Below are positions 27,636 to 64,000 of a stretch of DNA of 64,000 nt, piece after piece. Both the position numbers and the translations under genes were made by a program. The notes beneath the pieces were generated by a model. That model was given only the letters and a program-made list of their open reading frames with translations. It had not been told where the DNA came from and made no database searches. Source of the stretch: Azolla caroliniana (lineage: Eukaryota; Plantae; Polypodiophyta); assembly GCA_043228905.1 (NCBI GenBank), contig JBHGNT010000006.1, positions 16,802,001 through 16,866,000 of the forward strand. The letters run 5' to 3'. Numbering within the stretch: the stretch's first letter is position 1; every line of letters starts with the position of its first letter.

Positions 27636-30012
27636 TAACAGTCACATCATGCATCGAAAGGATCATGACACTCACATTATGACTCGAAAGGATTTGAACC
27701 CACGACCTTGTTGTACACATGTCAAATCGTTAACCATTGTATTAATATTCTTATATGTATAGTCTCTAGAATATGAAATCTAATATCATAGGAATATTCT
27801 ATATTACTCTACATTCTAGAATGACCTAGAATATTCTAGAGTGTTCTATACCACTAGAACCTTCTAGAATACTCTAGAGATCTTCTAGATTACTCTACAT
27901 TCTCTAGGATAACCTAGAATATTCTAGAGAGTTCTCTATTACTTATAAATAGGGATCTACCACCCATCCCAAACCTAAATTGGTTCAACGCCATTTTGTA
28001 GCCTACTCTTTGTAATCCATTTTACGCTTCAATATAATAATTCTCTTTCAATTATCCCTCTATCTCTTTTTCTCTCTCTTTCTCTCTCTCAGTCTTGACA
28101 CAGCATAGGCTAGGTCGGGCCGGGTCGCCGCCATTGCGTACATGATACGTCCTACGGCCGATGCGTAGGGCATGTTTCCATTAAGCTCTCTCTACTTGTC
28201 CGTTGAAGGAGAGTTTATGTCTGATAGTCGGATCGACATCGGAAGCGGTGTTGGTTTTGGCTTCGCATTTTCCATGTTGAAGTGCCTTAGCACCTTCTGG
28301 ATATAGTCGGACTGGGAGAGTCAGAGAGTCTTGGTTGTCTGATTTTGCTCGATCCTCATGCCCAGTATGTGATGGGCTTGTTCGAGTTCCTTCATCGCGA
28401 ACTTGTCGTGAAGGGTCCGCTTCAGCTTTCCAATCTCTACTTGATTTCTTCCTACAATTAGCATGTTGTCGACATATAGGATCAGGTAAATCCTAGACTC
28501 ATTGGCCAGTTGTCGAACATACATGCATGGGTCGAAGTCGGATCGACGGTATCCAAGCTTCTTGATGTAGGAGTCGAACTTCTGGTACCACATCCTCGGC
28601 GCGTGTTTCAAGCCATAGAGGCTTTTCTTTAGTCGACATACGAGGTGACTTTCCTCCCCTGTCATCGTGAACCCTGCCGATTGAGACATGTAAATGTCTT
28701 CTTCCAGATCTCCGTGTAGGAATGCCATCTTTACATCCAACTACACTAGCTCTAGGTCTTCTGTCGCCACAACTCTTAGTAGGAGTCTGAGGGTGGTCAT
28801 CTTGACAACTGGTGAGAATATCTCGTTGTAGTTGAACCCATGTTCTTGTTTGAACCCTTTCGCAACAAGCCGAGCTTTGTATTTGGGTTCTCTGAGTCGG
28901 ATACATATTTGTATCAGAAAACCCATTTGCAGGTTAGCGGCTTTCTTCCAGCTGGTAATTCAACCAACTCTCATGTCTGATTCTTGTGAATCGAGCCCAT
29001 TTTGGATCTCATGGCTTGAAGCCATATGTCGGTGTTCAGTGTGGCCATAGGTTCGTCATATGTGCCTAGTTCACCTGCATCAGTGTAGTTGACATAGTCG
29101 AGGCCCGATTGATAGAACATTGTCGGCCTTCGAGCTCGTCCAGATCTCTTGGGTGCCAAGATAAGTGGTTCCAATTCTTCGATCAGCTCTGTTGATTGAC
29201 CATTATTTGTTAAACCGTTTGTGCCATGAGTCTTGTTAGGTGACCTGCCCCCATGTTGGGATTTCAACGGTGTCATGGCGTTCTCCCCTATGGGCTTTGT
29301 CGACTCGGACTTGTTCCCAAATCGCATCTTGTTGACTTTTCTTTGTTCGACTCTTGTTGAATTGGCTCTATCTTTGATGGCTTTGTCTTCGAGTTCGACT
29401 ATTGGACTTGTTGCTGATTCGGAGTTGGCAGGTATATTATTCGCTTGTTCGAGTTCGACTGTTTATCGAGTCTCTAAGTCATCCTGGTGGGTCTGTCTTT
29501 CTACGACAACTCTATCATCTTCGAAGGATACCCTTTTACCAACTATTTTTTGTTGGTTCCGTTGAGAGAAGATAGAGTCTTTATTGAAGACTACATCACT
29601 GCTCCGGATCAGTTTCCGGTTCTCTAGATCCCATAGCCGGTAGCCGAAGTCCCCATCGGTTCCATAACCGAGAAATATGCATTTTGTTGCATGGGGTGCC
29701 AACTTGGTCCTTTTCTCCCTGGGGATGAACGCGTATGCTTCGCATCCCGATACACGGAGCCAATCGTAGGTCAGTTGTTTGCTTGACCATAGTGCATCTG
29801 GCACTTCGAGCCTGATTGCTTTCAACGGTGAAAGATTTGCGAGGTATATTGATGTCTACAATGCCTCGGCCCAAAACTCTAGATTCAGTCCGGCTTGTTG
29901 GAGGATTGCAGTCACCCTCTCCTGGATCGTTCAGTTGTTCCGTTCTGCCACTCCATTCTGCATGGGTGTGTAAGGAACGGTGTTGCGATATTCTGCAAGT
30001 ACGTGTAGGATC

Positions 30013-30846
30013 TGTTGGGAGACAGGTCCCTCCGGATGGGAAGGGGGGAAGATCAGTGACGATGAACAAATTCGGCCAAGGCCGATAGGCCGAGGCCGAA
30101 ACCGTATGAGGAGGACCCCGGCTACGGAGAGCCGGATGGTGTAGGCCCGGTTGAGGAGTACCCGGCTACGGAGAGCCGGATGGTGCAGGCCCGGTATGAA
30201 CCGGATGAGGAGTACCCAGTTACGGAGAGCCGGATGGTGCAGACTCGGCATGAACCGGATGAGGAGTACCCGGCTACGGAGAGCCGGATGGTGCAGGGCC
30301 GGTATGAACCGGATGAGGAGTACCCGGTTACGGAGAGCCGGATGGTGCAGACCCGGTATGAACCGGAGGAAGAGACCTATTCGTAAATATGTTTATGAGA
30401 GCCCATTGTGGCTATATTTGTAAATAGCCGAAAAGTCATATTAGTATAAATATGACTTAGGGCAAACTAATAGTTGGTCGTTGTTGTTACTTTTTCTTGT
30501 TGGTGCAAGAAGAAGAGAGAGCACGTAATAGTGTACAGAGAGAGAGAGAGAGAAAGAGGTCGTTGCCTCTGTTGTAACCACCGCCTGTGGCGAAGAGCGT
30601 GAGTCCGAGGTCGTTGCCTCCGAGAACTCACTATTTTGTACATTCATACATAGTGACAGTTTGCAGCCTGTGGGCTCCCGTGGTTTTTTCCCCTAGTTTG
30701 GGGTTTTCCACGTAAACCTCCTGTGTAGTGTGTGTGTGTGTATCTTCCTCTCCTTTGTATCGTGTTTTGTTTCCCGTTTTTCTGTGTGTCATTCTACGCT
30801 CGGTTGTGGCCGAGCGTTGCGCATAAGGAACGTTGGGTTCCCGTTA
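30013..30846 (+). mobile_element. Solo LTR of a copia-B-related family with a 54-bp tandem repeat
   Basis: TSD GGATC at 30008-30012 and 30847-30851. Starts TGTTGGGA, ends TA instead of CA. R/U5 similar to the copia B LTR. About 5 x 54-bp units at 30108-30370. Confidence 0.88.
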
Positions 30847-31719
30847 GGATCTTAGGCAGGACCACAAGGGTCTTGGACTAGGGAGTAGAGGAGAAATGGA
30901 AGTTTAGCCCAAGAGGAGATGAGAAAGAATAAGACATAAACATAGAATAGAATAGATGGAGTCAAGATACACCCACAAGGCAAGAAGATCAACAAGCTAT
31001 ATTAAGAGTTCACAAAATATTACAACCAAGGCCGCATAGGCCACACCAAACGGTATAACAAAACCCTAACCGGATAAGCAAGTAAAGAAGATGAAGAAGA
31101 AACCCTAAACAAACCCTAAAACCGAAATGGGAAACCCTCGACCTAAGTTGTATATCTCTCTCCCTCAAAATAGGCAACCCCTTCCAAAGTGACCCCTCAC
31201 TCCCTTTTATAGTAGTAAGGGGTGAGGCACATTACAAGAGTGGTCAAACCCCCTTCTCCTTTCCAAAGGAGAATATTTGATCTCGATCTTGAGACCGTTG
31301 GCCATAACTCTCACTCCTCTAGCCATCCTATTCAATGCCCATTACTCCCTTCACTTATTCTTCACGTACCTCTATCTAGTCTACCAAGTGCACATCACAT
31401 TTACACTTAACAAACTCCGTGGAGCACCTTTAGCACCTTAGGTTAATGCCCTTCCCCTTTACATTTTGTTATCTTATTTTTATATACAAATGTACAAGTA
31501 TTGCTATGACCGTAGGATCGTGACAAGGAGTGCGAGCGAACTAGCACAACTATTGAGATGATATGGGAAGAGTAAGAAAAGAAATAAAGCAATGATGCAA
31601 GTGAAACTAAGCTGAGTAGGATTAGAGGTGACCAAGAGTAAAAGAGAATGAGAGAATGAGATAAAAGAAGAAGAGAAGAGTGAGTGAGAAAAGAGAAAAG
31701 CTTAAGAAATTTCCACACG

Positions 31720-33738
31720 AACCGTCGTAGCATCCCGTTCCACCATATCCGTCGCACATCCTCGAGCCGTCGGCTCCAACCGATCCACCACGTCCACCGT
31801 GTGTCCCCGAAACATCGACTCCATCCGAACCGCCATATCCACCACACGCGCCTTCCTCCTCGGTCGGTCCTCCCGAACGTCGTTGCCGATACAATCACTC
31901 TTTCTTTGTCCGCCGCGTAGGTCCTCCGATTAGGCCCTCAGTCACCCCATTTGCTCGCCGGATTCTGCCCATGGCGTACCGCATGTGTTCTATCTCCGGC
32001 TCGATCCTCTCTTCGTCTCGAACACCTCGTGCCGATTCCCTCTGTTCCGCGCTCACCTTCCGTAGGCTCTTTCCGTGTGCCATTGTTGTCTCCCGAACAC
32101 ACGCTCGTTCTTCGGTCCCTCGGCGACCTCATTACGCGCTCCTCGCTTCCCCTTTGCTCGCCATGATCTCTCGCCATAGAGAGTACCGTCATCCCGACCT
32201 CCATGTCAGTGTCCTTCGCGACTCTTGTTACCGCTTCACCCCGACTCTCGTCCTCTTGGCCCGCTTGTACTCGCATGTCCTCCGGGACGCCACATTTTCT
32301 CTTCTCGATGTGTAGCCCTTTGTCCTCCGCGCACCATCCTTCGCTCTCGTCGTTCGTTCATCGACCCCAGCACCTCACCGCTCCATCCTCCGTCTCGTAC
32401 TTGCCTCTCAAAGGCTCGACCGGTCCGACGTTGCCGGTCACTCGTTGCCGCTCCTCCAGGTGCATGCTCGTTCTTTGGCCCTCCGCCGGCCATAATGTAT
32501 GCTTCGTGTTACGCCCTTCATCCACCGTAGACCCGCCCTCTGCGTCGGTCTCTTCTTCCCTTGTTGCCATAACCCCTTCCGACTCCGTTTCGCCGTCTTG
32601 GTCCCGCTCACCCATCTTCCCGCACCGGATACCCGCTCCGGTAACCGACTCCTCGCTGCCACCCGCCGTCTCTCCGGTCTTACGTTGATCTGCAACCACC
32701 GAAGTCTCTAGAATAGGTGTGGAGGGTCCCGCTTGTATCCGGTCGTCAACCGAACCGTGGTGATCGTGCCCGATTAGCCTCCTCGTGCTCACCGGCTCGC
32801 ACCACGCGTTGTGGCTTGTATGCCTTGATGTCCAATCATGCCGGCTTGGTCCTTGCCCGGTTCGGTCCCGACCGATCATGTTCCGGTTTGGTCGGCTTCC
32901 TTCCATAATCGTAACCGGCCGGTAAGGGTTCGGCCGAACACTTCCGGTCTTGCCGGCTCTTCTTCGATTCGGGCTCGGTTGACCGGCCCCCGCTTCATTC
33001 TTTTCCCAGCTCGCCTTCCGGTCGTGTTGGTTCCCGACTCTCTCCTTGTTGCCGCTCTCGGCCCCCCCTTCGGTCCTTTCGTATATGCCCGTTTCGGGCC
33101 TCGCATCCTCCTCTTCGTTTCGGTCACCTGCCTTGTTGCCGCCACCATCCGTCACTCTAGGTCTCATACCGACTCTCGGGCCGGATGCCGGAGTCTCTAG
33201 AACCGGTGCGGGTTAGATCCCGGCACCGCCGCTCATTATGTCCGTAGCCACCTCCACCCAGACGTCGTTGTTCGTGCCTACCCCATCTCCGATCGTGGAA
33301 GCCTCGATTATGCTTGTCGCCTCCTCTTCCTCAATCTCCTTGTCTTCTTCTTGGTTGCCCGCCTTGCCACCACCACCGTTCGTCACTCTAGGTCCCACAT
33401 CGGCTCTGAGGCCAGACGTTGGAGTCTCTAGAATCGGTGTGGGTAAGTTCCCAGCACCACCTCTCGTCTCCTCCCCGCTCGATGTTTCGGGCCATCGTGT
33501 CCCGAATCCTCCCCCCACTCTCGAAGTGGCGCTCCCCGCTTCGTAGTCACCGGCCTCATCCATGGCCATCCCTTTTCTGCAAGACGAGAGGGTCGCTTGC
33601 TCCGCACCCTCTCCCACATCGTCGCAGTTGCACGCTCTCCCGGCCTCCACATAGGCCCCATCGTCCACGCATAGGGAGGCTCCGATCGTCTCCGGCCTGA
33701 CTCCATAATAAGCCCTTCTTCGGCTTCAAACTTCTCCT
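31720..33738 (-). pseudogene. Low-complexity extension ORF of element N unit 1
   Basis: ORFs 33213-33668 and 32358-33167 are in one frame separated by a single stop. Recurring (L/S)TPILET motif; homologous peptides in unit 2. Confidence 0.6.
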
Positions 33739-34121
33739 TGTAAACGTAAGTGTTTGCGGAAGTGTAAAACAGAGAACAACAGAGAGAGAGAGAGAGAGCA
33801 GAACACAATTTCAAAATTATATCAAGACTCTATCTACACACTGTGCTAAGTAGCACTATTTATACAAGTCCTCTTGGGACTGACAGAAGTACCATGTACT
33901 TCAATGCTCACATGAGCATCTGACACTTACTACGAGACTATAGCTACCTAGTAGTCTATCCTATACTAGGCTTCCGATTGGACTTCCGGTTACGGATTGC
34001 ACCCGGCCTCCACTGCTTGCCGGTTCGGTTGCTCACCGTCATACCGATCCGTTTCACCCGATCCGTCTCGCTTACCGGCTCCGGCTTATTCAGCCGATCC
34101 GGCTCTGGTTGAGCTTGCCGC

Positions 34122-37100
34122 TCAACACTCCCCCTCAAGCTCAACCTGAGGTGGGGTCGTAGTGTCGACCTCTGTGGCAGTCGGTTCTTCCAACCGACTT
34201 CTCCTGGCGTCACTCCGCCTTGCTCGCGCTCCTCGTCCGGTCCGGTCCCGTTTTCCGCGACCCCTTTGGTTCTGCGCGCCTCGACCCTCTCGGTCGGCAT
34301 GTCTGCTCAATAGGCCCATCTCAGCACTCACGTTGCTATGACTCCGGCGCTTGCCGATCCGTCGGTTCTCCCACGATGGCATCGACTTCCGCTATGTCCG
34401 TGTCCCCTTGGCCTTCAGACGATCCGACTCATCCAAATCCATCTGTTGGTCCGAGTCAACTGTCTCCGACTCGTTCCAGCTCTTGTCCGAATCGGTACAC
34501 TCTGATTCAACTTCCGGCTTCAGGCCTCTCACCACATCGGACCACATCCAAGTCTTGGCCTTCTCCATGCTTCCCTCGGCTTCTTCAGCCGATGAACCAA
34601 AATCGAATTCTTCATTCGACTCCGCATCATGGTCAGTGTCGTCATGATGACCTCCGCACAGCATGCACTTCTCTTCCTGAGTGCACAACTCTTCTTCACA
34701 GCCGCTTGCTCCAACCTGTTCGGATGTGTCGACTTCCTTCGTCAACTCGGCTTTCTTCATCTTCTTGTCTCCTCTTCTTCCGGCTCTCCTCTTACCGACG
34801 GATTCAACAATTTTTTGGCCTTTGCCCATTTCGGTAGAGACTTTGCCCTTGCTTCTCCCCCTCAAGTGCGACACGTCGAGATGCTGAATACCAAGCATGT
34901 CGGTAAACTGCTGCAACTTGTCCGATCCGAGCGGCTTGGTGAAGATATCGGCAACTTGCCGATCCGTATGAACATACCGTAGGTCAACTTCACCGCTCAG
35001 GACCCACTCACGCACGAAGTGGTAGTGCACCTCGATGTGCTTTGTGCGAGCATGGAACACAGGGTTCCTGGCGAGCTGCAGGCTGCTCATGTTATCACAG
35101 TAAATCGGGATCGGGGTCGGTACCTCGATCCGCAAGTCTCGCAGCAGTCGCCGAAGCCAGATGGCTTCACAAGTGGCAACGGTAGCAGCCCGGTACTCAG
35201 CCTCAGTGCTTGACAAAGCCACTGTGGGCTGCTTCTTGCTGCTCCACGCAACGGCCGCGCTACCTATGGAGAACATGTATCCGGAAGTGGAGCGGCGATC
35301 AGACGCATCGCCGGCCCAGTCAACATCTGTGTAACCGACAAGCTCTTCGGGTATACCTCGACGGTATAGCAGTCCCCGGTCCTTAGTGTCGCTGACATAC
35401 CGTAATATTCGTTGAGCGCACTGAAGGTGCTCCACGGTCGGCTTCTGCATGAACTGACTTACCATGCCGACCAGATAGTTGATGTCGGGTCGGGTGATGG
35501 TTAAGTAGATCAGGCTTCCGACAATCTGTCGGAACCGTTTCTCATTGCAGGCCGGTCCGGAGTTGGGACGGAGCTTCTGGTTCCAGTCCAGGGGTGTGGA
35601 GACAAGTCGGCAATCCGTCATGCCGAACTTATACAGCATATTCAACACGTAATGTCGTTGTGAGAGCAATATGCCGTCGGGGTTCCGGATCACTTCGATC
35701 CCAAGAAAGTAATGAAGGTCCCCCAGGTCCTTCATTTCGAATGCGTCCGACAACTGGGACTTGACGCGGTTGATTTCGGGAAGACCCGGTCCGGTGATGA
35801 CTAAATCATCCACATACAAGAGTATACATACCGGACCGTCAGAGCCTTGACGGATGAACAACGAAGAGTCCGACTTAGAGACAGCAAACCCCAGCTTACG
35901 CAACCGGTGCGTGATCTTCGCGTTCCCGGCTCGGGGGGCTTGCTTCAAGCCGTAAAGCGACTTCTTCAGTCGGCATACCGCCGACTTGTTCATCTCCGAT
36001 TGAAATCTGGGGAGCTGAGTCATAAAGACTTCTTCTTCAAGCTCTCCTTGAAGGAAGGCGTTCTTCACATCCATCTGGTGAAGATGCCACCCCCTTGCCG
36101 CAGCAACCGCCAGTACCACACGAACCATCGTCATCTTCGCCACAGGGGCGAAGTTCTCATCGTAGTCGATTCCGTGGGTCTGCGCGTATCCCTTCGCCAC
36201 TAACCGGGTTTTGTACCGGTTAACAGAACCGTCGGCGTTGTACTTGACCTTGTACACCCACTTGCATCCGATCGGTTTACAGTGACAGGGAGAATCAACT
36301 AGGTCCCAAGTTTCGTTGGCATCGAGTGCCCGCATTTCTTCGTCCATAGCGGCACGCCAATTTGCATCCTTTGCCGCTTCTGTGTAGCTCTCCGGCTCAC
36401 GCACTTCTGTCACCTTAGTCATGTACGCATAATGATGCGCCATGTATTCATTGTACCCGTACCGCATGACGGGATCCTTCTGGCGGGTTGATCGGCGCAA
36501 CGCACTGTCGCCTGATTTGAGGCCCTTCTTGGCCAGTTCGGTCTTCGTTGCCGAAGATCCGCCTTTCTCCTTTCCGGAGTCGGATACGCACCGATCCGAC
36601 TCATCGTTGCCGGTTTCGAATTCCGGCATCTTCCTCTTCCCCTTCTCTTTGCGCGTGAACCGTTTCCTCGGTTCCTTGCGCGGGGAGAGCACGGCAGAGT
36701 CTCCACCACTTGCCGTCTCTTCATCCGACTGGTCCAACCGACTCAGTCGCTCGTTCGGTCCACTCAACCGTAACGATTCCGGACTCTCATCTTGAGTCCC
36801 GGCTTCATCATCCTCTGCCAGGGCTGATTCAGGCTCACTGGACTGATCTTCCGGCATTGGGTCAGGATCGGAGGTCGGAGTCGGTACGGAGTACCAGGAT
36901 GCCGATTCATCGAACTCGACATCCCGGCTTACTCGGACTTCCTTCGTCCGGGGGTTATAGCACTTATACCCCTTTTGCTCTTGAGCATAGCCGACTAGGA
37001 TGCATTTTTCCGATTTTGCATCCAGCTTTCTCCACTTCTGATCCGGCACATGCACATACGCTATGCTGCCGAATATCCGAAGGTGTCTTAAGTTCGTCTT

Positions 37101-39912
37101 GCGCCCGAAATACAGCTCATGAGCTGACACCTTGTCACCAATGCGGTTTTGTATGTAGACGGCCGTCCGGACCGCCTCCGCCCAGTAGAACCGGGGCATG
37201 CTCTTTTCCTCCAGCATTGCCCTTGCCGCTTCGACGAGTGACCAGTTCTCCCTTTCAGCCACACCGTTTTGCTCCGGTGTGTATCTGCAGCTAAACTCTC
37301 ACCGAATTCCCTTCTGTTGCAGATAACTAGTGAATTGGCTGGAAAAATATTCCTTTCCGCCATCCGACTGAAGGCATTTGATCTTCCTCTCCGATTCCCG
37401 TTCCACCATCTTCTGGAGGCTCCGAAAACAGTCGAAGACTTCGCTCTTCCGCTCAATGAGGTAGATCCAAGTATGTCGAGTATAGTCGTCGATGAAGGAG
37501 ACGAAGTATCGGCTCCAGTTCCGTTCGGTGGGGAATGGAAGCCGGTGTTGCTTCCCAAGTTGGCAGGCTTCACAAATTTCGGCTCTCCGGCCGCTAAACT
37601 TCGGCAAACCGAAAACAACTTGTTTCGTTTGCAGGTCTTGAAGCCTCTGGTAGTTGACGTGGCCTATCCGCTTGTGCCACAGGTCAATGTCCGACTCGAC
37701 CTTCTGTCGATTCGCGAACAAAGCGGGGCCAAAGTCATTGGTGTTGAGGATAAACATCCTCCCGTCTCTGTGCCCTTGCGCAATGACTTCGCCCTCATCC
37801 TCAATGAAGCACCCGAGGTGCGTAAACCGCACCTGCATCCCCTGGTCGACAATCTGACCAACGGACACCAGGTTCTTCGTGATTGTTGGAACGTGTAATA
37901 CGTTCATCAGCTTCCCTTTCTGTCCGACGTGGCTTAGAGGGACTTCTCCGACGTGCACGATTGGGTGAGGAGTGTCATCTCCGGTTTCGACTACTCCTGG
38001 TTGATCCGGTTTCTCCAGAAAGGAGTACCACTCTTTGTGGCTCGTCATGTGGTTCGACGCTGTCGTAGTGTAGGTTGCACACTATGTGGAAATTATATTT
38101 TTGTCCCTTTGGATAGAAAATGGAGTGCTCGGTGAGAAAAGGAGGAAAACGGCATACCGGCAAGGAGGGAAAACGGCATGCCGGCAAGGAAGAAAACGGC
38201 ATACCGGCAAGGAAGAGCCGGATAAAGAGACATAAATGTAAAAAGAAGGAAATACTCACTACTGCGCAAGGCGTGATTCGAACTCTGCACCTCCGCGTTG
38301 ACAAACCCCAACCTTACCATTACATTAACTTATCTTAAGTGTTCTAAATATAGATTTAATACGTATAAGACCTTTATTTATGCATACCTTTATTAAAAGG
38401 TAAATCGTGTATTTTTTTTAATATATGAAAAAGAAAAACACGAGACACTAAAAATAACTCATGCACATCTAGCGTGCATGAGCCCTATACTTAGGAAATA
38501 AAAAAAGCATCACATGGACATTTAGTGGACATGAACACTTTTTGTAAAAAAAAAAAAAGCATGAAGCCATGCTTAGCTCTTCCTCCCTTATATAAGGAGG
38601 AGAGAAATATGTAAAGGGTTGTTGATTTTTTTGGATTAAGAATTAATCAATACAAAAATTATTCGTGGGATTCACGATTTATACGTCTACTTCTCTCTTA
38701 ACACCCTAAGTACCAATTAATATAGTATACTCGTGTGATTCACGAGTTTCTTATCTTTCTCTTTGCTATTTACTCATAATTAATCTCTATCTCGCGAACT
38801 TCTTTCTCCTAGTCCAAGACCTCTGTGGTTCCCACCCGACTCACGCAACGATCCGGAGCCGAAAGGCACGACAACGCGCCGGAATCAACATACCACGCTT
38901 CCTCCATTTTGGAAGTGGTCTTCTTCATTGAGTTTGCCTTGTGATTCATCACCAAGGCTGGCCCCTTACCGGCCTTTCCGGTTCCGAATCCTCCTGATCC
39001 GTTTGTGTAGTGCGAGTTTTGCCGGCCACCCTTACCGGTCTTGCCGGATCCGGATTTGTCCGAATCGGCACGCTTTCTCCAGCACTCGCTTTCCCTGTGG
39101 CCTTTTTTGCCACACTACCAGCATTCCGTAGCGGATTTGTCTTGCCGGCCTCCGGCACCGCCTTGACTCCCCCTGCTTGTGGAAGTCCCGGAACTGCTAT
39201 CCGCACACTCATAGTGCCTTCGTTCCTGCTCTTGCCGGCCGCCTCCATTGCGTGCCGACCCACCTCTTCCACCACGCCCACGGAGCCGATCCGTTCCCGT
39301 GTACAGCATTCGGTTGTCCGGGGATGCACTGGTAGATGCACCGGCGTGGTTCTCCTCTACAAGGAGCATCGACTGTAAGTCGAAGAATGAGGGGGTATTC
39401 TCCCTTGTACACACCGCAGTCTGGAACGCTCCGAACTTGGACGCCAGGCCTCCGAGACATACCTGCACCATCTCATCTTCCTCTACGGTAACATTGATAG
39501 AGGCGAGCGAGTCGCAGATCTCCTTTATCCGGCCCGTGTAGTTTGCCACAGACATGTTCTTCTGTCGAACATTGCTCAACTCCTGTCTGAGTTGCAGCTT
39601 CCGGGCAGTGGTGCTTGCAGCGAAAACCTTTTTGAGGTTCCCCCAAGCATCCTTCGGTGTCTTGGCGTCATAGACGTGGCTGAGCAGCTGATCGCCGACA
39701 CTGGACGCGAAGCAGTACATCACCCTGCTTGCCGCTTGTTCCCATACCGGGAAGTCCTTGTGTGTCGAGCCGGGCGCCGCATCATTCGCTCCTTCGACAT
39801 AACTCCAGTACCCGTGTCCAAGCAGGTACTGGTGCATCTTGTAAGACCAGGATGCGTAGTTGCTCTTGTCGAGCTTGTCCACCGGGAGCGACGTAGCCAT
39901 GCCTCTATCCAT
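34122..39912 (-). pseudogene. gag-pol: Copia F gag-pol, disrupted by a stop in the zinc knuckle, a solo-LTR insertion and integrase lesions
   Basis: Gag 39115-39912 (ECW*CGKKGHRESEC); protease WYVDSGA|SNHMT split at 38060/38874; INT-RT-RH in ORFs 37299-38048 and 34392-37262. Confidence 0.93.
38061..38873. mobile_element. Solo LTR (813 bp) with 4-bp TSD in the copia F protease gene
   Basis: TGTCGT...ACGACA termini; TSD ACGC at 38057-38060 and 38874-38877; three ~24-bp AAACGGCATACCGGCAAGGA repeats at 38147-38215. Confidence 0.88.
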
Positions 39913-40045
39913 GTCTTCTACTGTGTCTGCTTTCGACCTGTTAGGGTTTTCTTCTCAAGAGTAAATGTCTGCAGCAGAGGTTCTCAACCCTCGCGCTCTG
40001 ATACCATGTAAACGTAAGTGTTTGCGGAAGCGTAAAATAGAGAAC

Positions 40046-40076
<31 letters not shown>

Positions 40077-40940: not shown

Positions 40941-40958
40941 TTCACATCGGGTTCACCA
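40941..40958 (-). promoter_or_regulatory. tRNA-Trp primer-binding site of element N
   Basis: TTCACATCGGGTTCACCA, 17/18 match to the plant tRNA-Trp 3' end TTCACGTCGGGTTCACCA (recalled); 5 nt from the LTR. Confidence 0.85.
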
Positions 40959-40963
40959 AAGTA

Positions 40964-48972: not shown

Positions 48973-49044
48973 ATTGTAATACGTAGGATATTATTTTCAT
49001 TTATATTTTATTATAGGAAATTAGTGTATATTCCAGATTTCTCT

Positions 49045-54120: not shown

Positions 54121-55653
54121 TGTTATGGCAAAACTCGAACCCATGACCTTAGGTTATATGGGTCAAGTTCTTGACCATTAGACCATCTATTGTAATACGT
54201 AGGATATTATTTTCATTTATATTTTATTAGAGGAAATTAGTGTATATTCCAGATTTCTCTGGAACATTCTAGAAGCTTCAGGATTACTCCTGAAAACACT
54301 ATAAAAGAGGGCACTAGGCATTATGTTAAACCAAATTGGTTCAACGCCAGTCTTAAGCCTTTTAGCCACCATTGTATATTCTCTTCATATAGTACATATC
54401 TTTCTTATCATCACTCTCTCTCTCTCTCTCTCTCCGTCTCGCTCACTCCTTCCTTCTCTCGAAGAAGTTCTACACCTCTCATAGTACTAATCCTTCGTTT
54501 AGTACTAATTCCTTCTCTGTCTCAGTACTGTTCCTGACACCATAATCGTAATAGCCGATAAGGGTTTGGCCGAACACTTCCGGTCTTACCAACTCTTCTT
54601 CGGTTCAGGCCTGGTGGACCGGCCCCCACTTCATTCTTTTCCCAGTTCGCCTTCCTATCGGGTCGATTCCTAACTCTCTCCTTGTTGCCGCTCTCGGCCT
54701 CCCCTTTAGTCCTTTTGTATATACCTGTTCCAGGCCTCGCATCCTCCTCTTCGTTTTGGTCACCCGCCCTGCCACTGCCATCGTTTGTCAGTCTAGGTCT
54801 CATGCCAGCTCTCGGGCCGGATGTCAGAGTCTCTAGAGCCAGTGCGGGTAAGATCTTGGCACCGCCGCTCGTTATGTCCGTACCCACCTCCATCCGGACG
54901 TCATTGTTCGTGGCTGTTGTACGTTGTCGGGATATTACGCAAGTGCGTGTGAAAATGAGGCGGGACCGCGGGGGTCTCGAACCAAAGAGCAAGCAAGGGA
55001 GGAGAAAGAGAGAGAACCGGCTACGCAGGACCGGGGATACGCAGGGACACGGCCCTTCAGCACGGAGAATGCGAACAGACACCGACACAGACAGATGCGA
55101 ATGACTAAATATGTGTATTAACAAAAATTGGCTAACACGACTACAACCCTCGATGGGGCACAGGTTGGTTACAACCGAACAGGCCGGCGAACAGATGCCG
55201 ATGCCTGTTCGCTTCGACGCACAAACGGGGTAGCAGGCCGGAGGTGCTGCCGGAAGCACTCGGCGTTCCTCGAAACAGCGCGAGCCTCCTCGGAACCCTG
55301 CACAGAAGCTATGGAGCTCGAGAAGGAAGGAAACACAGAGAGAGAGAGAGAGAAGCGTCCAGAAACAGTCCGGCAGCACTTCGTCCTCTCCGCGCGAGAT
55401 CCCTTCTCCTATTCTTCCTCTTCCTTTTATATCCCGTTAAGAGGCCGTTTGGCATTAACTGCATATCAACCGAATCTACCCACCTAGGATCCTCGTATGT
55501 ACTCTTGGCGCGCGTGTGTATAGAGCCGTTTCCCACGCCTTGTTCCTCCGATTCCTCTTGTGGGCGGTTTTCTTCACGACATCCGCCCCCACCTAACCGC
55601 GCATCCACCGGTATGCGCCAAATTAAGTTGGCACGGAGGAAACCGGCCCGCCT

Positions 55654-58600
55654 TTACTCTTCGCCTGCCGGCCCTTCCTCGGCCTCGGATCGGTCGTCGC
55701 TGCTGTCTAGGAGAATTGGGTCGGGTTCGTCGTCGTGCCGCTTCTTGAAAGCTTTGATCCTCTTCCCGGCCACGGGTATCGCTATTCTCGTACCGTCGAG
55801 TTCTGCCAGATGATACGTCCCGTTGTCGTTGGCGCTCTGTACCGTGTACGGCCCGAACCATCTCTGTGCGAACTTCCGCGTTGCTCGGTGCTGGTTGTCG
55901 AGGCTGCTGTCGTAGACGAGCACCCAGTCACCTTCGTCGATTTTCTTCGGTCGTAGCCGGTGCGTTCGGTCGAACCGGGCTTTGTTCTTTGTCCTCGCCA
56001 CCCGGAGCTTCTCTGTAGCCAGTGCCACGTCCTCCGGTCTCCGCTCGAGCTGTCGTATACGCGCGGCCAACAACTCCTCCCGGCTCATCTCGTCCCTCCA
56101 GTCGACCGTTGCCCACGAGGAGATCGTCCGTTCAATCGGCATGATCGGCTTCTGGCCGAACATGAGCTCTGTCGGCATGTACCCGGTTACCGAACTGTGC
56201 GTGGTCCGGTCTGCCCACAAAGCATAAGGTAGGAGCCGCGGCCAGTCACCGATTCGGCCTCCGCATGCCCGAACCAACGCCTTGACGATCGGTCCGTGTC
56301 CGCGCTCCACCTTTCCATTCGCCTCCGGATTGTACGCAGTGGTGAGCGAGAGCTTGACCCCCAGCCGGTCGAACAGCTCCGCGGCTTCTTCGGCGTCCAA
56401 CTCCCCTCGGTCAGCCACGATCTTCCCGACGCACCCGTACCGGCATACCACGTCCTCGATCAGGAACCGACACACGGCCGCGGTCGTCTTGTTCTGAAGG
56501 GCTCGGCCTTCCACCTGGTTCGTCAGGTCTTCCCGCGCTAGGACCAGATACCGCATCTGTCCTACCCCCATCGGCATCGTCACCAGATCTACCATCCATT
56601 TGAAGTGGATAGTCGGAGGGTACGTAGGGCGAAGCCCGTCCCGGTGTCGGACTATCGAGTGCATCTGACAACTCTCGCAAGTCGACACGAACCGATGCAC
56701 GTCCCGGTACAATCCCGGCCACCAGTACTTCCCCTTCAGCTTTTCAAATGTCGCCCACGTTCCACGGTGTCCAGCCCAAGGGCTGTCGTGGTGGGCCGCC
56801 AGTAGCTCCTCCTGTTCTTCCTTCATTGCCACCACCCGGAGCGGGACGCCGTTCCTCTTCTTCGGGTGCTTCCACAAATGCCCATCTCGGAGAAAGAATC
56901 GATATGCTCTCTTCCGGATCCGGTTGGCCTCGTCCTTCGTCCATGACGCATCGGGCGTCATTGTCTTCAAAAACCCGCCGATCTGCAGCCACTCCCCGTC
57001 GTACTTGCTCGCGTCGAACTCGTTAAGCGCCGGAGTGCTCATCCCGTCGGTCGTTATGTATGCCGCCTCGAAGAAATCCACGCCGACTTCTTCGTCTTCC
57101 GAAACCATGCCGCCCTCGTCGTCGAACCTCGCCCTCGAAAGCATGTCGGCCATGGCGTTGTCTTTCCCGGAAATGTGTCGTATTTCCGGGTCCAGGGACT
57201 TGACGTACGCTATCCACCTGAGCATCGCCAGGTCCGGGGTCGCGCATCCGGAAACCATACCGAGAATCGGCAGGCAATCCGTCTCGATGATCACTTCTGT
57301 CCCTATCAGGTAATCTTTGTCGGCCTTAACCGCCGAAACAATACCCCAGAGTTCGCGTTTAACCTGGGCGTATCCTCGCTGTCGTTCACTGAGGACTTTC
57401 GCGCCGAATCGGATCGGAAACCGATTGCCGTCCTCGTCTTCCTGGTTCACGACCCATCCGATCCCGGTCGGACTGGTATCCACCGTTATGAATACCGGGG
57501 TGCCCTTCCCGTATACCGCCTTCCGGAGTGCCGGTGCCGCTGCAAGGGCCTCTTTCAGCTTCCGGACCGATTCCGCGTGCTCGTCTAGCCATTCGAACCT
57601 TCGCCCCTTTTTCAGCAACCCGTACAGTGGCTCCGCGACGTGTGCGTAATGCGGGATCCATATGTGGTAGAACGCACATGCCCCCAGGAATCTCCGTACT
57701 TCCGTGACCGAGCTGCAGTCGGGCTTCATCGCGGAGATGGCTTCTACCTTTGCCGGAGACGGTTTCCGGCCATATGGTCCGCACAGGTGTCCGACCACCA
57801 TGATTTCTGACTGCCCGAAGGCCGACTTCTCCCCGGAGAAGGTGAGTCTCGCATCCTCTAGCCTTTGCAGCACCTTCTCGCAGTCGTCGATGTGCGTCGC
57901 CACGAATCGCCGGCATCCGTCCGGCCCGATCGTCTCGTCCCTTTCTTCCACCGGGCATCCCTTGATCGGGATGTCGTCCAGAAACGGCATGGTGATGTCC
58001 GGGATACAGTCCCTCAGAACCTTGTTCATCGCATTCACCATGTGGGCCACCGAGTTGGTCCCGCCTTGCGGCAGTGTACACATCCGAACTAGGCCGAGGG
58101 GAGTTCGCATCGTCGTAATGTCTCTGCTCTCCACGGCTAGCTGGAACTGGTCGTACCCTGAGTATAGATCCCCGACCGAGTAAATTGACCTTCCGGCGAA
58201 GGCCTCCGCGAACTCGTCTATGGTCGGTCCGATCCCTGCGTTCCGAATGGTCACTCGATTGACCGGCTGCAGGTCCTGGATGAAGCGCAACGAACCGTTT
58301 TTCTTCGGTACGGTAAACCATCGATTCGAATATGGGGCGCTCGACGGCTCGAGAATTCCCATATCAACTTTCTGCCTCAGCAGCTCCATCAACTTCGGGA
58401 TGTGAGCTCTCGGAACCGGGATTGGCTTGAGATTCCATGGTACATGCGGCACCGTGAATATCACCATCGGCTCCACGATCGTCGGGTCAACGCACCCGAT
58501 TTCCTCCGGCGAGAATGCGAAGGCTTTCCCGTGCCTTCCGAGCATTCTCCGAAACCGGTCTTCCTCCGCCGGCAGTAGGAACCCGCCCCCACCGATTTTG

Positions 58601-59145
58601 AGCTCTCGGAGCGTCTCGTCGGTGAAGGTGTGTCCTATGCAGGCCGGATCTCGTAGACTAGGGTCCGATGCAACCCCTTTGATTCTCGACGCGCTGTCCT
58701 CCGGCAGGGGTGCCGCGACTGGCCTTACCTTCCGGTCCACAGTCTTGTACTTGGTGCTTACGTGGGCCGTCCGAACTGACTCGAGCCCTCGACCGAAGTC
58801 CGCGATGACTCCGTACATCTCCTCGGAACACACCGGTATCGTCCGGTCTTCGTTAAGGCCTTCTTCGACTACCTTTCCCAGCATTCCCAAGGTGTCGTCG
58901 AACGAGACCGCCTCCACGGCTCCGTTGATTTCCTCATCCGGGCTGAGAACTCCGCACGCTCGAAGTCTCCCCTCCGCCTTCGTCTTCTCTCGGCCGCCGA
59001 CGCCGACTATCGTACACGCTCCGCTGCCGGAGAACAAAAATTCCCTACCTACGGTACAAGTTTTCTTCGGTTTTATCATACAGGTGTGGGGTTTTCCCGG
59101 GGTGTCCGGACTGTCGCGGCCCCACGCCTTGGCAGCCCTCTCTAA
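55654..59145 (-). CDS. pol: Element P Pol (RT-RNase H-integrase), probably expressed by -1 frameshift
   Basis: DLYSGYDQ, LPQG, FLDD, VDTSPTGIG, HHCC (H..H..CESC), VDL/ADRG/KVERGH and WFGPY. The frame is open upstream to the slippery site. Confidence 0.93.
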   Translation of the reverse strand, partial: LERAAKAWGRDSPDTPGKPHTCMIKPKKTCTVGREFLFSGSGACTIVGVGGREKTKAEGRLRACGVLSPDEEINGAVEAVSFDDTLGMLGKVVEEGLNEDRTIPVCSEEMYGVIADFGRGLESVRTAHVSTKYKTVDRKVRPVAAPLPEDSASRIKGVASDPSLRDPACIGHTFTDETLRELKIGGGGFLLPAEEDRFRRMLGRHGKAFAFSPEEIGCVDPTIVEPMVIFTVPHVPWNLKPIPVPRAHIPKLMELLRQKVDMGILEPSSAPYSNRWFTVPKKNGSLRFIQDLQPVNRVTIRNAGIGPTIDEFAEAFAGRSIYSVGDLYSGYDQFQLAVESRDITTMRTPLGLVRMCTLPQGGTNSVAHMVNAMNKVLRDCIPDITMPFLDDIPIKGCPVEERDETIGPDGCRRFVATHIDDCEKVLQRLEDARLTFSGEKSAFGQSEIMVVGHLCGPYGRKPSPAKVEAISAMKPDCSSVTEVRRFLGACAFYHIWIPHYAHVAEPLYGLLKKGRRFEWLDEHAESVRKLKEALAAAPALRKAVYGKGTPVFITVDTSPTGIGWVVNQEDEDGNRFPIRFGAKVLSERQRGYAQVKRELWGIVSAVKADKDYLIGTEVIIETDCLPILGMVSGCATPDLAMLRWIAYVKSLDPEIRHISGKDNAMADMLSRARFDDEGGMVSEDEEVGVDFFEAAYITTDGMSTPALNEFDASKYDGEWLQIGGFLKTMTPDASWTKDEANRIRKRAYRFFLRDGHLWKHPKKRNGVPLRVVAMKEEQEELLAAHHDSPWAGHRGTWATFEKLKGKYWWPGLYRDVHRFVSTCESCQMHSIVRHRDGLRPTYPPTIHFKWMVDLVTMPMGVGQMRYLVLAREDLTNQVEGRALQNKTTAAVCRFLIEDVVCRYGCVGKIVADRGELDAEEAAELFDRLGVKLSLTTAYNPEANGKVERGHGPIVKALVRACGGRIGDWPRLLPYALWADRTTHSSVTGYMPTELMFGQKPIMPIERTISSWATVDWRDEMSREELLAARIRQLERRPEDVALATEKLRVARTKNKARFDRTHRLRPKKIDEGDWVLVYDSSLDNQHRATRKFAQRWFGPYTVQSANDNGTYHLAELDGTRIAIPVAGKRIKAFKKRHDDEPDPILLDSSDDRSEAEEGPAGEE

Positions 59146-61268
59146 AAATCCTCTCGGTTATCGGAACCGAGGGAGTTGCGGTTACGCTCGTGGTTCGGCC
59201 TGACCGTCAAAAACTGGACCGAATGGCGCCCGTCCTGGCTCTTGACCCGCGCATAGGCCGAACCGTTGTCCAGCACCTTGGTCTCCATTCGAGCCGCCGT
59301 GATGTACGGTTCTCCCAGTATGACGGGGTGCGATGACGACTCCTGCACGAAGAAGTGCTGGTCTATCTCGACATCGCCGATCTTGACCCGTACATTCGGG
59401 CAGGCCCCGTGAAGTTCCTCGGTGGCGCGCGTTGCTGCCCTTATTTTCCACCCGTGCTTGGTGTTGATCGGCCATTTGCCCTTCTTATAGAAGTCCATGG
59501 ACATCAAATTGATCTCCGATCCGTGGTCCACCAAAGCTATCACCGGTTCCTGGACATCGCCGATCTTCACCGGGGTTTCCGTGGTCGCTCGGGCCCAGTG
59601 TGGTCTCGAATAGTGGCTTTCCGCCCACTCGTCTCCCAGCGCCATGTCGTCTAGGTGCGTCGTCCGCACTTCCACCGGTCTTTCCGGTTCTGTCTCCGTC
59701 GACAGCCTCTTCCGTTTCACCAAGTCCACGATGGAGTCGTGGAACTCCTTCTTGGCGATTCCCAGCACCTCCCGTAACGACAGCTCCACCTTGCTGTCGA
59801 GGATCCGTTCCTCCAGGACCTTTCGTAAGTCCGTGGTTCTTTCTATCTCCGTCCCCAGACGGTACCCGCCCTTCTGGGGTTTATCTCGCGTACCGGCCCC
59901 GCCGGCTTCGTCCCGTCGCGGCCCGGACCGGGTCTCGTATCGTTGTGAGGGCCCGGTCGTCCCGGGTTTCCCCACCCGCTTCTCTTCTACCAGAGCCTCG
60001 TAGTTCCGGCAAGCGGCTTCCATGAAGCCCGTCTTCTCCTCGACCGGGTCGCTCCACCCGGTCATCTCCCGTACCCGTTTCTCCGCACGGTCCGATTCCT
60101 CCCTTTTAAGCCCTGCACCGGCAAGGCCTCCCAGCATCGTCGGCCAGAATCCGGCTTCGCTTTCACTTCGGGCCTCGCCACCCCCGACTCGAATGCCGGC
60201 TGACGCCGAGTAGTGGACGGTTTCCGCGTGTCGGGCCGCCGCCTCTTCCATCAACCTTTTCATACCACCCTTTCCGTCGTTTCGGCTCAGGGCCCTTCGG
60301 GTGTCGCTGGCATGCACCCGTCCTTCCCACAGGTACACCACCCTGTTCCTCAGCGCCTCCGCGAAGTCGTCGCAGTCCTTCCGAATGTGGCCGACTTCAT
60401 CGCACCACATGCACCTGTTTCCTGCCGCCGGCCGTCGGTCACGAGCCGGTTCGCCTCCTTCCCTTCGGGCCTGCGCGATTTGGAGGTCCTTTATCGCCTT
60501 CGTCAATTCCTCCAGCGCCGCTCCTCCGGTTGAGCCTGTGACTACGCCGGTCGAAGCCGAACCGGTTTCCAACCACTCTCCGGTCCCTTCCTTTCGCACC
60601 CGTGGCGCTGGTTCGAACTTCCTTGCTGCGACCGAGCCCGACCCGGTCGCACCGTCATCCGCCCATTCTCGCCGTTTGTCGAAACGGCCACAGACCTTCC
60701 TGACAGCCGCCCAGTCGGTAGTGAGCCCGTCTTCGGTTTCTAGCAGGGCGCCCACGTGACTCCGATCCCTCTCGTCAACCGATTTGACGAACAGCAGGAC
60801 CCGGCTTGTATCCAGGACCATCCTGTCAAGCGCCGAAAGGCGTGCGAAGTTCTCCTCGAACTCCCGGAGGAGTGCCGAAGCGTTTCTTCCCTTTCCCGGG
60901 GACTCCACCCATTCCATGAACCTTCGCTTCGAAAGCCGGAGCGCGTCGTCCAGCCCGTATTTCTCTAGGAGCCGACCTTCGAACTCCTCCCAGGTACGGC
61001 TCTCCGTCCGTACCTCGAGCACCTCCGCATGGATGCTCGGCATCGCTACTCGGGGAAATCCGGCCAGACGCCTTTCTTCCGGAATGTCCCGCATCAGCAT
61101 CTCTGCACCGTAGGACGCCAAATACTTCGTGGCATCCTTCCCATCGAACCGGCCGATCGTGCCGACGACCGCCTCAATAGCTCTGTCGAGGGCACCGGTG
61201 CTCTCGCGCGCGTTTACAATCCGATCCACGGCCGAAGCCATGGCCTCTGCGAGATCCGACCCCCTCAT
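59142..61268 (-). CDS. gag: Element P Gag-protease ORF
   Basis: CMWCDEVGHIRKDC knuckle; protease-like ALVDHGSEINLM...VILGEPY. First ATG at 61268 (the ORF track starts at a GTG inside the PBS). Confidence 0.9.
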   Translation of the reverse strand: MRGSDLAEAMASAVDRIVNARESTGALDRAIEAVVGTIGRFDGKDATKYLASYGAEMLMRDIPEERRLAGFPRVAMPSIHAEVLEVRTESRTWEEFEGRLLEKYGLDDALRLSKRRFMEWVESPGKGRNASALLREFEENFARLSALDRMVLDTSRVLLFVKSVDERDRSHVGALLETEDGLTTDWAAVRKVCGRFDKRREWADDGATGSGSVAARKFEPAPRVRKEGTGEWLETGSASTGVVTGSTGGAALEELTKAIKDLQIAQARREGGEPARDRRPAAGNRCMWCDEVGHIRKDCDDFAEALRNRVVYLWEGRVHASDTRRALSRNDGKGGMKRLMEEAAARHAETVHYSASAGIRVGGGEARSESEAGFWPTMLGGLAGAGLKREESDRAEKRVREMTGWSDPVEEKTGFMEAACRNYEALVEEKRVGKPGTTGPSQRYETRSGPRRDEAGGAGTRDKPQKGGYRLGTEIERTTDLRKVLEERILDSKVELSLREVLGIAKKEFHDSIVDLVKRKRLSTETEPERPVEVRTTHLDDMALGDEWAESHYSRPHWARATTETPVKIGDVQEPVIALVDHGSEINLMSMDFYKKGKWPINTKHGWKIRAATRATEELHGACPNVRVKIGDVEIDQHFFVQESSSHPVILGEPYITAARMETKVLDNGSAYARVKSQDGRHSVQFLTVRPNHERNRNSLGSDNREDF

Positions 61269-62916
61269 CTTCTGCTCTTCTGCCGCCTCTTTCACGTCGG
61301 GTTCACCAAATATGTCGGGATATTACGCAAGTGCGTGTGAAAATGAGGCGGGACCGCGGGGGTCTCGAACCAAAGAGCAAGCAAGGGAGGAGAAAGAGAG
61401 AGAACCGGCTACGCAGGACCGGGGATACGCAGGGACACGGCCCTTCAGCACGGAGAATGCGAACAGACACCGACACAGACAGATGCGAATGACTAAATAT
61501 GTGTATTAACAAAAATTGGCTAACACGACTACAACCCTCGATGGGGCACAGGTTGGTTACAACCGAACAGGCCGGCGAACAGATGCCGATGCCTGTTCGC
61601 TTCGACGCACAAACGGGGTAGCAGGCCGGAGGTGCTGCCGGAAGCACTCGGCGTTCCTCGAAACAGCGCGAGCCTCCTCGGAACCCTGCACAGAAGCTAT
61701 GGAGCTCGAGAAGGAAGGAAACACAGAGAGAGAGAGAGAGAAGCGTCCAGAAACAGTCCGGCAGCACTTCGTCCTCTCCGCGCGAGATCCCTTCTCCTAT
61801 TCTTCCTCTTCCTTTTATATCCCGTTAAGAGGCCGTTTGGCATTAACTGCATATCAACCGAATCTACCCACCTAGGATCCTCGTATGTACTCTTGGCGCG
61901 CGTGTGTATAGAGCCGTTTCCCACGCCTTGTTCCTCCGATTCCTCTTGTGGGCGGTTTTCTTCACGACAACGTTTTAGGGTTAGGGTTAGGGTTAAGGAC
62001 GATGATGATTATCAATGACAAAGATAGACATGGCGTAATAGCGAAGATAATGGAGAGTATGATGGTAAGAGAGATTGGCATGAAGATGTTGAGAATCGTT
62101 GAGAAGCATTGTGGGGTGGGGGGTGGTGCCTAGAATGGCTCCACCCTCCTCCCAAGGGGGTTCAACGTTAAGGGGAGGGAAGAGAGAGAGAGAGAGATGA
62201 AAAGAGAGATAGATAGAGAAAAATGATTCATTCATATTTCATTCATTCCCCATAAGGGGTTAAATAGTTCAAGAGGGGGTAGATACATAGGGGTGTAAGC
62301 CCCCTCGAGCATTCATACTGGACACTCACTCACACCTCCTCGTATCCATCCGCATGCACACACGTGTGCATGTGTTCACATACGTATAGACTCACAATTA
62401 CATTTATGTCCCCTACACATACACAACAACATCATGATAACATTCGACCCTCGCTCATCGCACTGACTCTCCGTACATCTCGTACGGGGTAACAGTGGCT
62501 ACCCCATCTCCGATCACGGAAGCGTCGATTACCCTTGCCTCCTCCTCTTCCTCGATCTCCTTGTCGTCGTCTTGGTTGCCCGCCTTGCCACCGCCACCAT
62601 TCATCACTCTAGGTCTTACACCGGTTGTCGGGTCGGACGCCAAAGCCTCTAGAATCGGTGTGGGTAAGGTCTGGGCACCACCGCTTGTCTCCTCCCCGCT
62701 TGATGTTTCGGGCCATCGTGTCCCGAATCCTCAGCCCACTCTCGAAGTGGCGCTCCTCACTTCGTCGTCACCGGCCTCATCCATGGCCGTCCCTTTTCCA
62801 CAAGACGAGAGGCTCGCTTGCTTCGCACCCTCTCCAACGTTGTCGCCATTACACGCTCTTCCGGCCTCCGCATAGGCCCCATTGTCCACGTATAGGGAGG
62901 CTTCTTCCCCTAAAGA

Positions 62917-64000
62917 TGTCGCGATATTCCACGAGCGCGTGTAGGATCCGAGGCGGGACCATAGGGGTCTTGAACTAGGGAGTTGAGGAGAAGGAATAAG
63001 ACACGAAATGGAAGCTTAGCTCAAGAGGAGAGGAGAATGAATATGACATGAAAATTGAACAAGATATGGATGGAGGCAAAATACTCAACAAGTTATATTA
63101 AGAAAACACAAACGAATACAACCATGGCGGCATAAGCCAAAACCCAACGACTACAAGAAACCCTAACCGAATAAGTAAAGTGAAGAAGATGAATAAGGAA
63201 ACCCTAAGAGAAACCCTAACCCTAAACCAAAATGGGAAAAAGAAGAACCCTAGAACTATGTGGTATACCTTTCACACTCAAAATAGGCAACCCCTTCACA
63301 AGTGACCCCTCCCTTCCTTTTATAGCCCAAGGAGGGAGGGACCTTACAATGTGGGATAAATTTCTCCTCTTTATTCTATACACCATTTTACATTGTAAGT
63401 GTGCACATGTTGCACACCGCCGACTTGCCCATTCTATCCCCGTTTCACACCGTAGCCGGAAATCTTCACGACATCCACCCCCACCAAACCGCACATCCAC
63501 CGATTTCGGCTACGGTGATCAACCGGGTCCTCCGCCGTCCCAGCACCCGACCGCCTCGCCGGCTCCTACTGACCCCGATCCGTCGAATCCATCCGATCCA
63601 TCAGGTCCACCGCGTGTCCCCAAACCACCAACTCCATCCGATCCTCCATATCCGACGTTCGTGCCTTCCTCGGACGCCGTTGTCGACCCGGCCACTCCGA
63701 CTTTCTTCGCCATGTATGCCCTTTGATTGGGGCCCCGGTCACTTCGGTTGTACGCCAGATTCTATGCCTTGTGTGCCGTGTATGTCCCTCCGTCGGTTTG
63801 ATCGTCTTCGCGTCCCGAACACTTCCACGTGCCAACTCTCTCCGCTCCGCGCTCGCCTTCCGCAGGCTCTTCCCGTGTGCCATTATCGTTCCCCGAATGC
63901 GTGATCGTTCTTCGGTCCTTAGGCCACCCCATTACACGCTCCTCGCTTCCCCCTTGCTTGTCGTGCTCTCTCGTCGTAGAGTGTACCATCATACCAACCT
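62917..64000 (-). mobile_element. Element N unit 3: LTR 62917-63416 plus adjacent internal region (continues beyond the window)
   Basis: TGTCGCGATATTCC...GTTGCACA (500 bp); 63417-64000 is colinear with 41779-42360. Confidence 0.82.

Follow-up and report, generated by a model that had tools for sequence, protein, structure and literature searches.

How could a row of retroelement units without polymerase genes arise, and how could such units ever have been mobile? This question is raised by a 64-kb window of the 523-Mb genome of Azolla caroliniana (GCA_043228905.1, contig JBHGNT010000006.1, positions 16,802,001-16,866,000; G000:C6:16802001-16866000 in our notation), in which the units of a long terminal repeat (LTR) element, here called N, form a tandem array that encloses an autonomous Ty3/gypsy element, here called P. 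Positions given below are window positions. N is a real family with dispersed copies. As an overall explanation, which we regard as reasonably probable, N is a pol-less family that likely borrows reverse transcriptase (RT), integrase and, in most copies, capsid from Phygy-like autonomous families; its long reading frame is likely kept for translation and not for the sequence of its tail, and the array would have formed after insertion.

The family was sampled in 40 stretches (37 found by similarity to unit 1 of the array, three taken as its right flank), in 20 more, and in a further 40 stretches around a pattern of LTR end and polypurine tract (PPT). N copies have LTRs, a primer-binding site (PBS), a PPT and a target-site duplication (TSD) of their own. 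Of 31 LTR-to-LTR internal regions, 29 gave no Pol match, as did all eight further pairs, which makes 37 of 39 internal regions in total; the two exceptions are explained by a 31-amino-acid match and a nested P-like element, respectively. Among the 32 copies with both ends called (L077 and L032, with mis-called left ends, were left out), 21 have an exact 4-bp TSD, 31 a TSD within one mismatch, and all 32 a CG core. Dispersed copies with their own TSDs and the lack of pol in copies outside the window are what a first-pass annotation of the window, which had described a Gag-only satellite retroelement, had led us to expect. LTR pairs are 94.5-100% identical (median 98%), and most elements measure 4.1-5.0 kb, with only one of 21 pairs below 4 kb. 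The N-type LTR-end/PPT pattern has 1,896 matches in the genome; as 16 of the first 30 are N-like (of the others, two lack pol and derive from another family, and 12 adjoin an integrase), we roughly estimate about 1,000 N copies. A genome search with the Gag head returned at least 150 matches at 77% identity or more. Within the window, Pfam located Pol domains only in inserted elements and had no match in 15 stop-to-stop open reading frames (ORFs) from N-derived and LTR stretches. Locus L046, considered as an N/P chimera, was rejected, being a P-like element nested in N, with a deletion.

Element P (54925..61969, minus strand) is an autonomous, Phygy-like Ty3/gypsy element of 7,045 bp with the TSD ACGT. 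Its LTRs (54925-55581 and 61313-61969) are 100% identical and enclose, likewise on the minus strand, a PBS (61297-61308), a Gag-protease frame (59145-61322) and a Pol frame (55654-59157) with the gypsy domain order RT-ribonuclease H (RH)-integrase and, according to Pfam, no chromodomain. Among P copies, the target was NCGN in 20 of 20 and the TSD exact in 19 of 20, and LTR pairs are 99.6-100% identical (0-3 substitutions); a P-type pattern has 2,424 matches in the genome. The copies L097-L116 are 99% identical in pol, yet their LTRs measure 657-794 bp and carry several different U5 heads, and the internal region of L110 measures only 4.2 kb. Named relatives of the P RT-RH region are Riccia sorocarpa proteins (57-70%). 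We take the PBS of N and P to be of tRNA-Trp type, which agrees with the Phygy lineage. Phygy elements, as characterized by Neumann et al. 2019 (PMC6317226), use a 4-bp NCGN target, carry a tRNA-Trp PBS in 81% and are the sole lineage with a target preference; the same target and PBS recur in N, in P and in a second autonomous family, Q, and P shares with the non-chromoviral Phygy the lack of a chromodomain. That account describes autonomous elements of 7.7-10 kb from Physcomitrella, whereas P has 7.0 kb. Because P falls below the published range of 7,656-9,968 bp, the claim is limited to Phygy-like, an earlier label that fits the NCGN target and the tRNA-Trp PBS. N shares PBS, leader, PPT and LTR tips with Phygy-like elements. 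Being pol-less and yet inserting at NCGN, N most likely uses a Phygy-type integrase; its RNA would enter helper particles, with tRNA-Trp as the primer.

The frame of N consists of a capsid head followed by a charged, repetitive tail. The homology of the unit 1 head to the Gag N-terminus of P, noted in the first-pass annotation, was confirmed (35% over 101 amino acids, E 4e-19), while N had no match to the nucleocapsid or protease of P, and P0001 contains no CCHC motif. The N capsid, for which Pfam gives no match, is recognized from its fold and from its homology to the Gag of P. The head of L087 was modelled as a two-lobe capsid (predicted local distance difference test (pLDDT) 84.5; linker at 111-114), and this predicted structure resembles dArc1 (Z 10.6, root-mean-square deviation (rmsd) 9.7 over 159) and the Arc N-lobe (Z 8.9, rmsd 1.9 over 69). 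A single-sequence fold was of low confidence (pLDDT 49.5), a PDB profile search gave nothing relevant, and Foldseek gave no match at E ≤0.001, with Arc, Copia and Ty3 capsids heading its list; in the Atlas, Retrotrans_gag clusters appeared at 0.91-0.93. Most copies have only part of this capsid: of the 42 loci that match an N capsid, 34 retain just the N-lobe and eight retain both lobes, in a sample biased to N-lobe-only queries. Eight complete pairs picked by pattern comprise three N-lobe-only, three whole and two C-lobe-only capsids, with seven TSDs within one mismatch. Copies missing either lobe have inserted with their own target sites, including both C-lobe-only copies, which have TSDs. 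The lobe deletions are in frame, of two lengths and near the lobe boundary. Six public proteins, possibly from this plant or its relatives, share the N design, two of them without N-lobe. The term Gag-only thus overstates the capsid, which is partial in most copies, and understates the frame, which spans the whole internal region.

This frame runs for up to about 1,300 codons, from just past the PBS to about the 3' LTR, with 1,291 codons across the whole internal region in L030 and 1,208 in L087. In L030, the Gag frame has no stop in 1,219 codons, compared to 49 and 40 stops in the other two frames. Across 22 other N copies it has 3.2 stops per 1,000 codons versus 37 and 30; seven of these copies came from the long-frame list, so that their selection was not fully frame-blind, and L049, L039 and L086, which have nested insertions, were left out. 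The longest ORF in 300 dinucleotide shuffles had 302 amino acids. In six long-frame copies the stop lies from 341 nt before to 193 nt after the start of the 3' LTR; a seventh stops early. Shared indels of at least 3 bp are in frame in 45 of 63 cases (p 7e-10) versus 9 of 23 in the LTRs, those of 4-30 bp in 20 of 29, and shared indels of only 1-2 bp account for 14 of 77 in the internal region versus 16 of 39 in the LTRs. The tail, in which G, A, E, T and R are frequent, contains repeats with periods of about 222-231 and 522 bp and is acidic, then basic, with net charge going from -30 to +30 along its length. Its amino acids drift near neutrally while the frame stays open: the ratio of nonsynonymous to synonymous changes is 419/187 for shared and 653/266 for singleton changes (p 0.42), revealing no amino-acid constraint, and pairwise ratios of nonsynonymous to synonymous rates (dN/dS) range over 0.63-0.95 for the tail, compared to 0.27 for the head. 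The roughly 2 kb of GC-rich sequence reported for unit 1 indeed has no Pfam match; it is, however, the decayed tail of one such ORF and thus coding.

Being translated almost as far as the 3' end likely helps N RNA to survive or to be packaged, which would be why the frame stays open. An open frame would shorten the 3' untranslated region and so protect the RNA from nonsense-mediated decay, or hold it on ribosomes for packaging. An analogy is offered by some coronavirus defective RNAs, which, as reported in PMC8255065, need a long frame regardless of what it encodes. Like N in the proposed scheme, these defective interfering RNAs are helper-dependent parasite RNAs with a long frame, and the product of that frame is not required to function; they belong to a different virus class, though, and were demonstrated by experiment, which leaves the likeness to N an analogy only. 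Several observations weigh against a frame kept for translation. Stops shared by at least three copies exist, five in the tail and one in the head; either some N lineages may have been mobile although their frame was interrupted, or CpG decay may have struck repeatedly. Slippage among repeats with a period divisible by three yields in-frame indels without selection, and private indels are also enriched for in-frame lengths (40 of 65). The head may, moreover, still be selected as a protein; its low dN/dS comes from 13 copies picked for their long frames, and the shared/singleton test for the head is not significant (p 0.15). That the N protein itself functions, with the capsid lobe that is left docking in helper particles and the disordered tail binding N RNA in place of the absent zinc knuckle, either for a packaging advantage in cis or to poison the helper, is an unlikely explanation in our view. 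It would account for the head dN/dS, for in-frame deletions that are the size of a lobe, come in two lengths and lie close to the lobe boundary, for a design retained in six public proteins, and for the charge gradient of the tail, a composition that can be selected without conservation of sites. Either lobe can be absent, however, the tail shows no amino-acid constraint, and its length varies widely. Quite improbable appears a relic, in which a low-complexity Gag extension grew by in-frame repeat slippage and is under no current selection: while the repeats that make up the tail, its neutral amino acids and the shared stops fit such an origin, stops are depleted across divergent subfamilies, the small indels of 4-30 bp are in frame, too, and shared 1-2 bp indels are proportionally fewer in the internal region than in the LTRs. 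We retain translation as the favoured explanation for the open frame.

The first-pass annotation had also proposed that N and the neighbouring P are a parasite-helper pair. P lies within solo LTR X inside unit 2, has identical LTRs and is among the youngest insertions, so its adjacency is no evidence for a helper role; elsewhere in the genome, too, N and P-like elements are nested within one another, a pattern expected if both prefer CpG. At the family level, P is the better-matching helper. The alternative, Q (L150, L152-L154, L179, L181, L184, L186 and L189 on G000:C1), is autonomous and Phygy-like with a Pol about 70% identical to that of P, NCGN-type sites, LTRs of about 1,040 bp and a longer PBS spacer, and is older than P (LTR identity 92-96% in five full-length pairs). 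In a comparison of cis signals between 30 N, seven P and five Q copies, N resembles P more than Q in leader (90% vs 73%), U5 head (77% vs 62%) and PPT (89% vs 86%), and Q more than P in the U3 end (86% vs 71%). The LTR ends of N and P quoted earlier as a close match are 77% identical. As young N copies exist (LTRs 99.6-100%), P appears to be the better current helper candidate, and Q a possible earlier helper. Somewhat unlikely, by contrast, is Q or an unsampled family as the main helper. The Q-like U3 end points that way, as do a median N LTR identity that predates the burst of P, LTR heads in the window about equally near P and Q (69/66 for LTR2 and 73/71 for LTR3) and a capsid equidistant from both; in opposition to this, most N copies resemble P in their leader and U5 head, and no Q pair as young as the youngest N copies occurred among the few examined. 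The N capsid is 34-46% identical to the P N-lobe and 31-39% to Q, with 30-43% in a comparison with P, Q and a third family, and forms its own long branch in the capsid tree. At this distance N is not a recent deletion of either family, and P, judging by sequence, is not its parent. A seemingly pol-bearing sister of N in the capsid tree (L164) was discarded; the extracted piece is a lobe-deleted N copy. Short elements with Q-type ends (L159, L160, L161), possibly parallel satellites, include two pol-less copies with a Q-clade capsid and one element that has only the end of the integrase and whose capsid is 40% like that of N.

The internal regions of LARD elements are non-coding, unlike N with its one maintained frame. 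TR-GAG elements, as described by Chaparro et al. 2015 (PMC4350172), are, like N, non-autonomous elements with LTRs, PBS and PPT, and with a single ORF that contains a Gag domain and no Pol. They are, however, shorter than 4 kb with a 5-bp TSD, whereas N mostly has 4-5 kb and a 4-bp NCGN TSD, and TR-GAG1 encodes a 433-amino-acid Gag with a zinc finger, compared to up to about 1,300 amino acids without CCHC knuckle and with usually half a capsid in N. LARD/TRIM and other non-autonomous Gag-remnant elements covered in PMC13570524 resemble N in borrowing Pol, in exceeding 4 kb and in commonly having tandem or rearranged copies. Among Gag-bearing non-autonomous LTR elements, N works like TR-GAG but departs from it in size and TSD. 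In the literature searched, which reached few subscription papers, we found neither a non-autonomous Phygy-type family nor a Gag tail that is kept in frame and neutral in sequence. Gag-bearing pol-less elements and tandem LTR arrays are already known, and the array and the neighbouring P are ordinary; new here are the long frame and split capsid of N. The family extends trans-mobilisation to the Phygy-like lineage, with the NCGN site marking the borrowed integrase. N might be, and we hold this only tentatively, a long-lived lineage of defective-interfering type derived from an LTR retrotransposon. Such a lineage would have persisted longer than its parent, exploiting one Phygy-like helper after another, and selection would keep its 3.5-kb frame translatable even though the protein drifts in sequence and can do without half of its capsid. 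If true, this would be a translation-not-sequence rule for retrotransposon parasites. Hundreds of natural N variants, with whole capsid, N-lobe only or C-lobe only, and with the frame open or broken, bear on what Gag does in non-autonomous elements and on whether translation licenses RNA for packaging or survival.

The array itself was laid out by self-comparison, ORF lists and sequence reading. The previously described order LTR-internal-LTR-(partial LTR)-internal-LTR-internal is borne out, with every N part on the minus strand, and all six nested insertions have their own TSD, as had been stated. LTR1, the 3' LTR of unit 1 (29981..31499; subtype of about 750 bp), lost its U3 start and PPT; its left flank is ACGG within a minus-strand copia integrase, and it is interrupted by a solo LTR of the copia family LTR-B (30013..30846, plus strand, TSD GGATC). 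The body of LTR1 differs from LTR2 by 3 substitutions in 655 bp; its head (29981-30012) differs at 5 of 32 bases, mostly CpG. A fragment of an unrelated repeat, Y (31500..31715, strand not assigned), whose best 40 scored matches are at 92-100%, took the place of the LTR1 end, the PPT and about 150 bp of unit 1. The unit 1 internal region (31716..33738), a decayed tail of the long N ORF, is followed by the nested copia1 (33739..40404, minus strand, TSD CTCCT), a Gag head (40405..40916) with N-lobe only, the C-lobe deleted in frame and two stops, the predicted tRNA-Trp-type PBS (40947..40958) and LTR2, the 5' LTR (40964..41675), which lacks its final 50 bp or so. An apparent age paradox between the copia1 LTRs (95% in BLAST) and the host LTRs (99.5%) was rejected, as non-CpG divergence is 0.29% and 0.31%. 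LTR2 is joined at a short (G)TAT microhomology to the partial LTR (41676..41837), the right end of an LTR3-type LTR and 3' LTR of unit 2, with a PPT starting at 41838; that both pieces form a natural long LTR subtype was rejected, as no scored match spans 712/713. The unit 2 internal region (41838..62916) has the tail only and is interrupted by copia2 (43217..48578, minus strand, TSD CAATC, LTRs 100% identical), a chromovirus-type gypsy (48900..54539, plus strand, TSD CCATA, LTRs 97.2% identical over aligned columns; 67% like the chromovirus-type element at 22312-28100) and solo LTR X, the host of P (54915..62494, strand not assigned, TSD GTGGC), in which TTAGGG telomere-like repeats occur at 61970-61998. 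It ends in a PBS-less junction (62895..62916, minus strand), where PBS and Gag head (about 570 bp) are deleted; unit 3 has the same junction. Unlike unit 1, units 2 and 3 have neither PBS nor Gag head. LTR3 (62917..63473; 557-bp subtype) is common to units 2 and 3, with a PPT at 63474, and the unit 3 internal region (63474..64000) continues beyond the window to L011:2464, where a fourth LTR, LTR4 (L011:2465-3007), closes the array just past the window; the right flank, ACGT, belongs to the 5' LTR of a copia on the plus strand. AAACCCTA motifs occur in the N LTRs at 41100-41125 and 63200-63225.

The array is not one insertion, as its flanks lie in two unrelated copia elements of opposite orientation. 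The expected continuation of the left host copia has no match in the window or the following 29 kb, and the single TSD in a continuous host that marks tandem LTR retrotransposons inserted as one was not found. Units 2 and 3, lacking PBS and Gag head, could not have been primed in their present form, and their PBS-less junction has two matches genome-wide, i.e., it occurs nowhere else. In public contigs it is crossed without differences by one piece in each of two studies, with fewer than 31 bases on one side; the 41675/41676 junction is bridged by none of the public contig pieces listed, and its loose ends are two normal LTR continuations. The tandem row is thus likely a local rearrangement of dead copies. 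One N copy, already inserted, would have lost its PBS and Gag and then given rise to units 2 and 3 when its LTRs underwent unequal crossing-over, and a later deletion would have fused a separate insertion, unit 1, onto them; the simplest order that we infer is insertion, deletion, unequal crossing-over, nested insertions and fusion. Against this stand the flanks ACGG and ACGT, only one base apart, a divergence between units 2 and 3 of 7-11% of non-CpG sites compared to only 4% between LTR3 and LTR4, a tree that does not pair units 2 and 3 as sisters, neither being closer to the other than to unit 1, and the membership of all three units in a single internal subfamily, which would not be expected of independent insertions.

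Tandem LTR elements are common in plants, according to PMC11899658 and PMC13570524. Those in the former have the arrangement LTR-internal-LTR-internal-LTR with shared internal LTRs, like units 2 and 3 and like the N tandem L077 (785-9982), which has three LTRs, two units 99.8% identical and ACGT on both sides; they are single insertions flanked by TSDs, however, whereas the N array is a composite with unrelated flanks. The first two LTRs of L077 carry the same 1.15-kb insertion, and L079 has a partial duplication. On the array model drawn from the first-pass annotation, a single cDNA comprising several units was inserted as a whole, after read-through or a switch of templates among LTR subtypes packaged together. 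Units in one orientation and of a single internal subfamily, NCGN at both flanks with one base of difference, a microhomology that could reflect a template switch and clean three-LTR tandems with matched TSD such as L077 agree with this, and PMC11899658 leaves both routes of formation open. Still, the flanks are unrelated hosts in opposite orientation, no PBS lies behind the 5'-most LTR, and the LTRs belong to two subtypes about 73% alike with apparent ages of 0.3% and 4%. At least two LTR subtypes do take part, as had been claimed, but a single read-through product is already largely refuted by the different flank hosts and the PBS-less 5'-most unit, and we consider it highly unlikely; local rearrangement after insertion remains our preferred origin of the array.

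An unplaced contig (G000:C834, L014) repeats window positions 29185-39350 at 97-99% and is probably another haplotype of the locus. LTRs of the LTR-B family (30107-30374, 10070-10272 and 14897-15118) contain 28/54-bp tandem repeats of variable copy number. A complex structure at 2842-16120 contains the LTR of a chromodomain-bearing gypsy three times (2842, 9399 and 15647), with a tRNA-Met PBS behind two of the three and a copia inserted between them.

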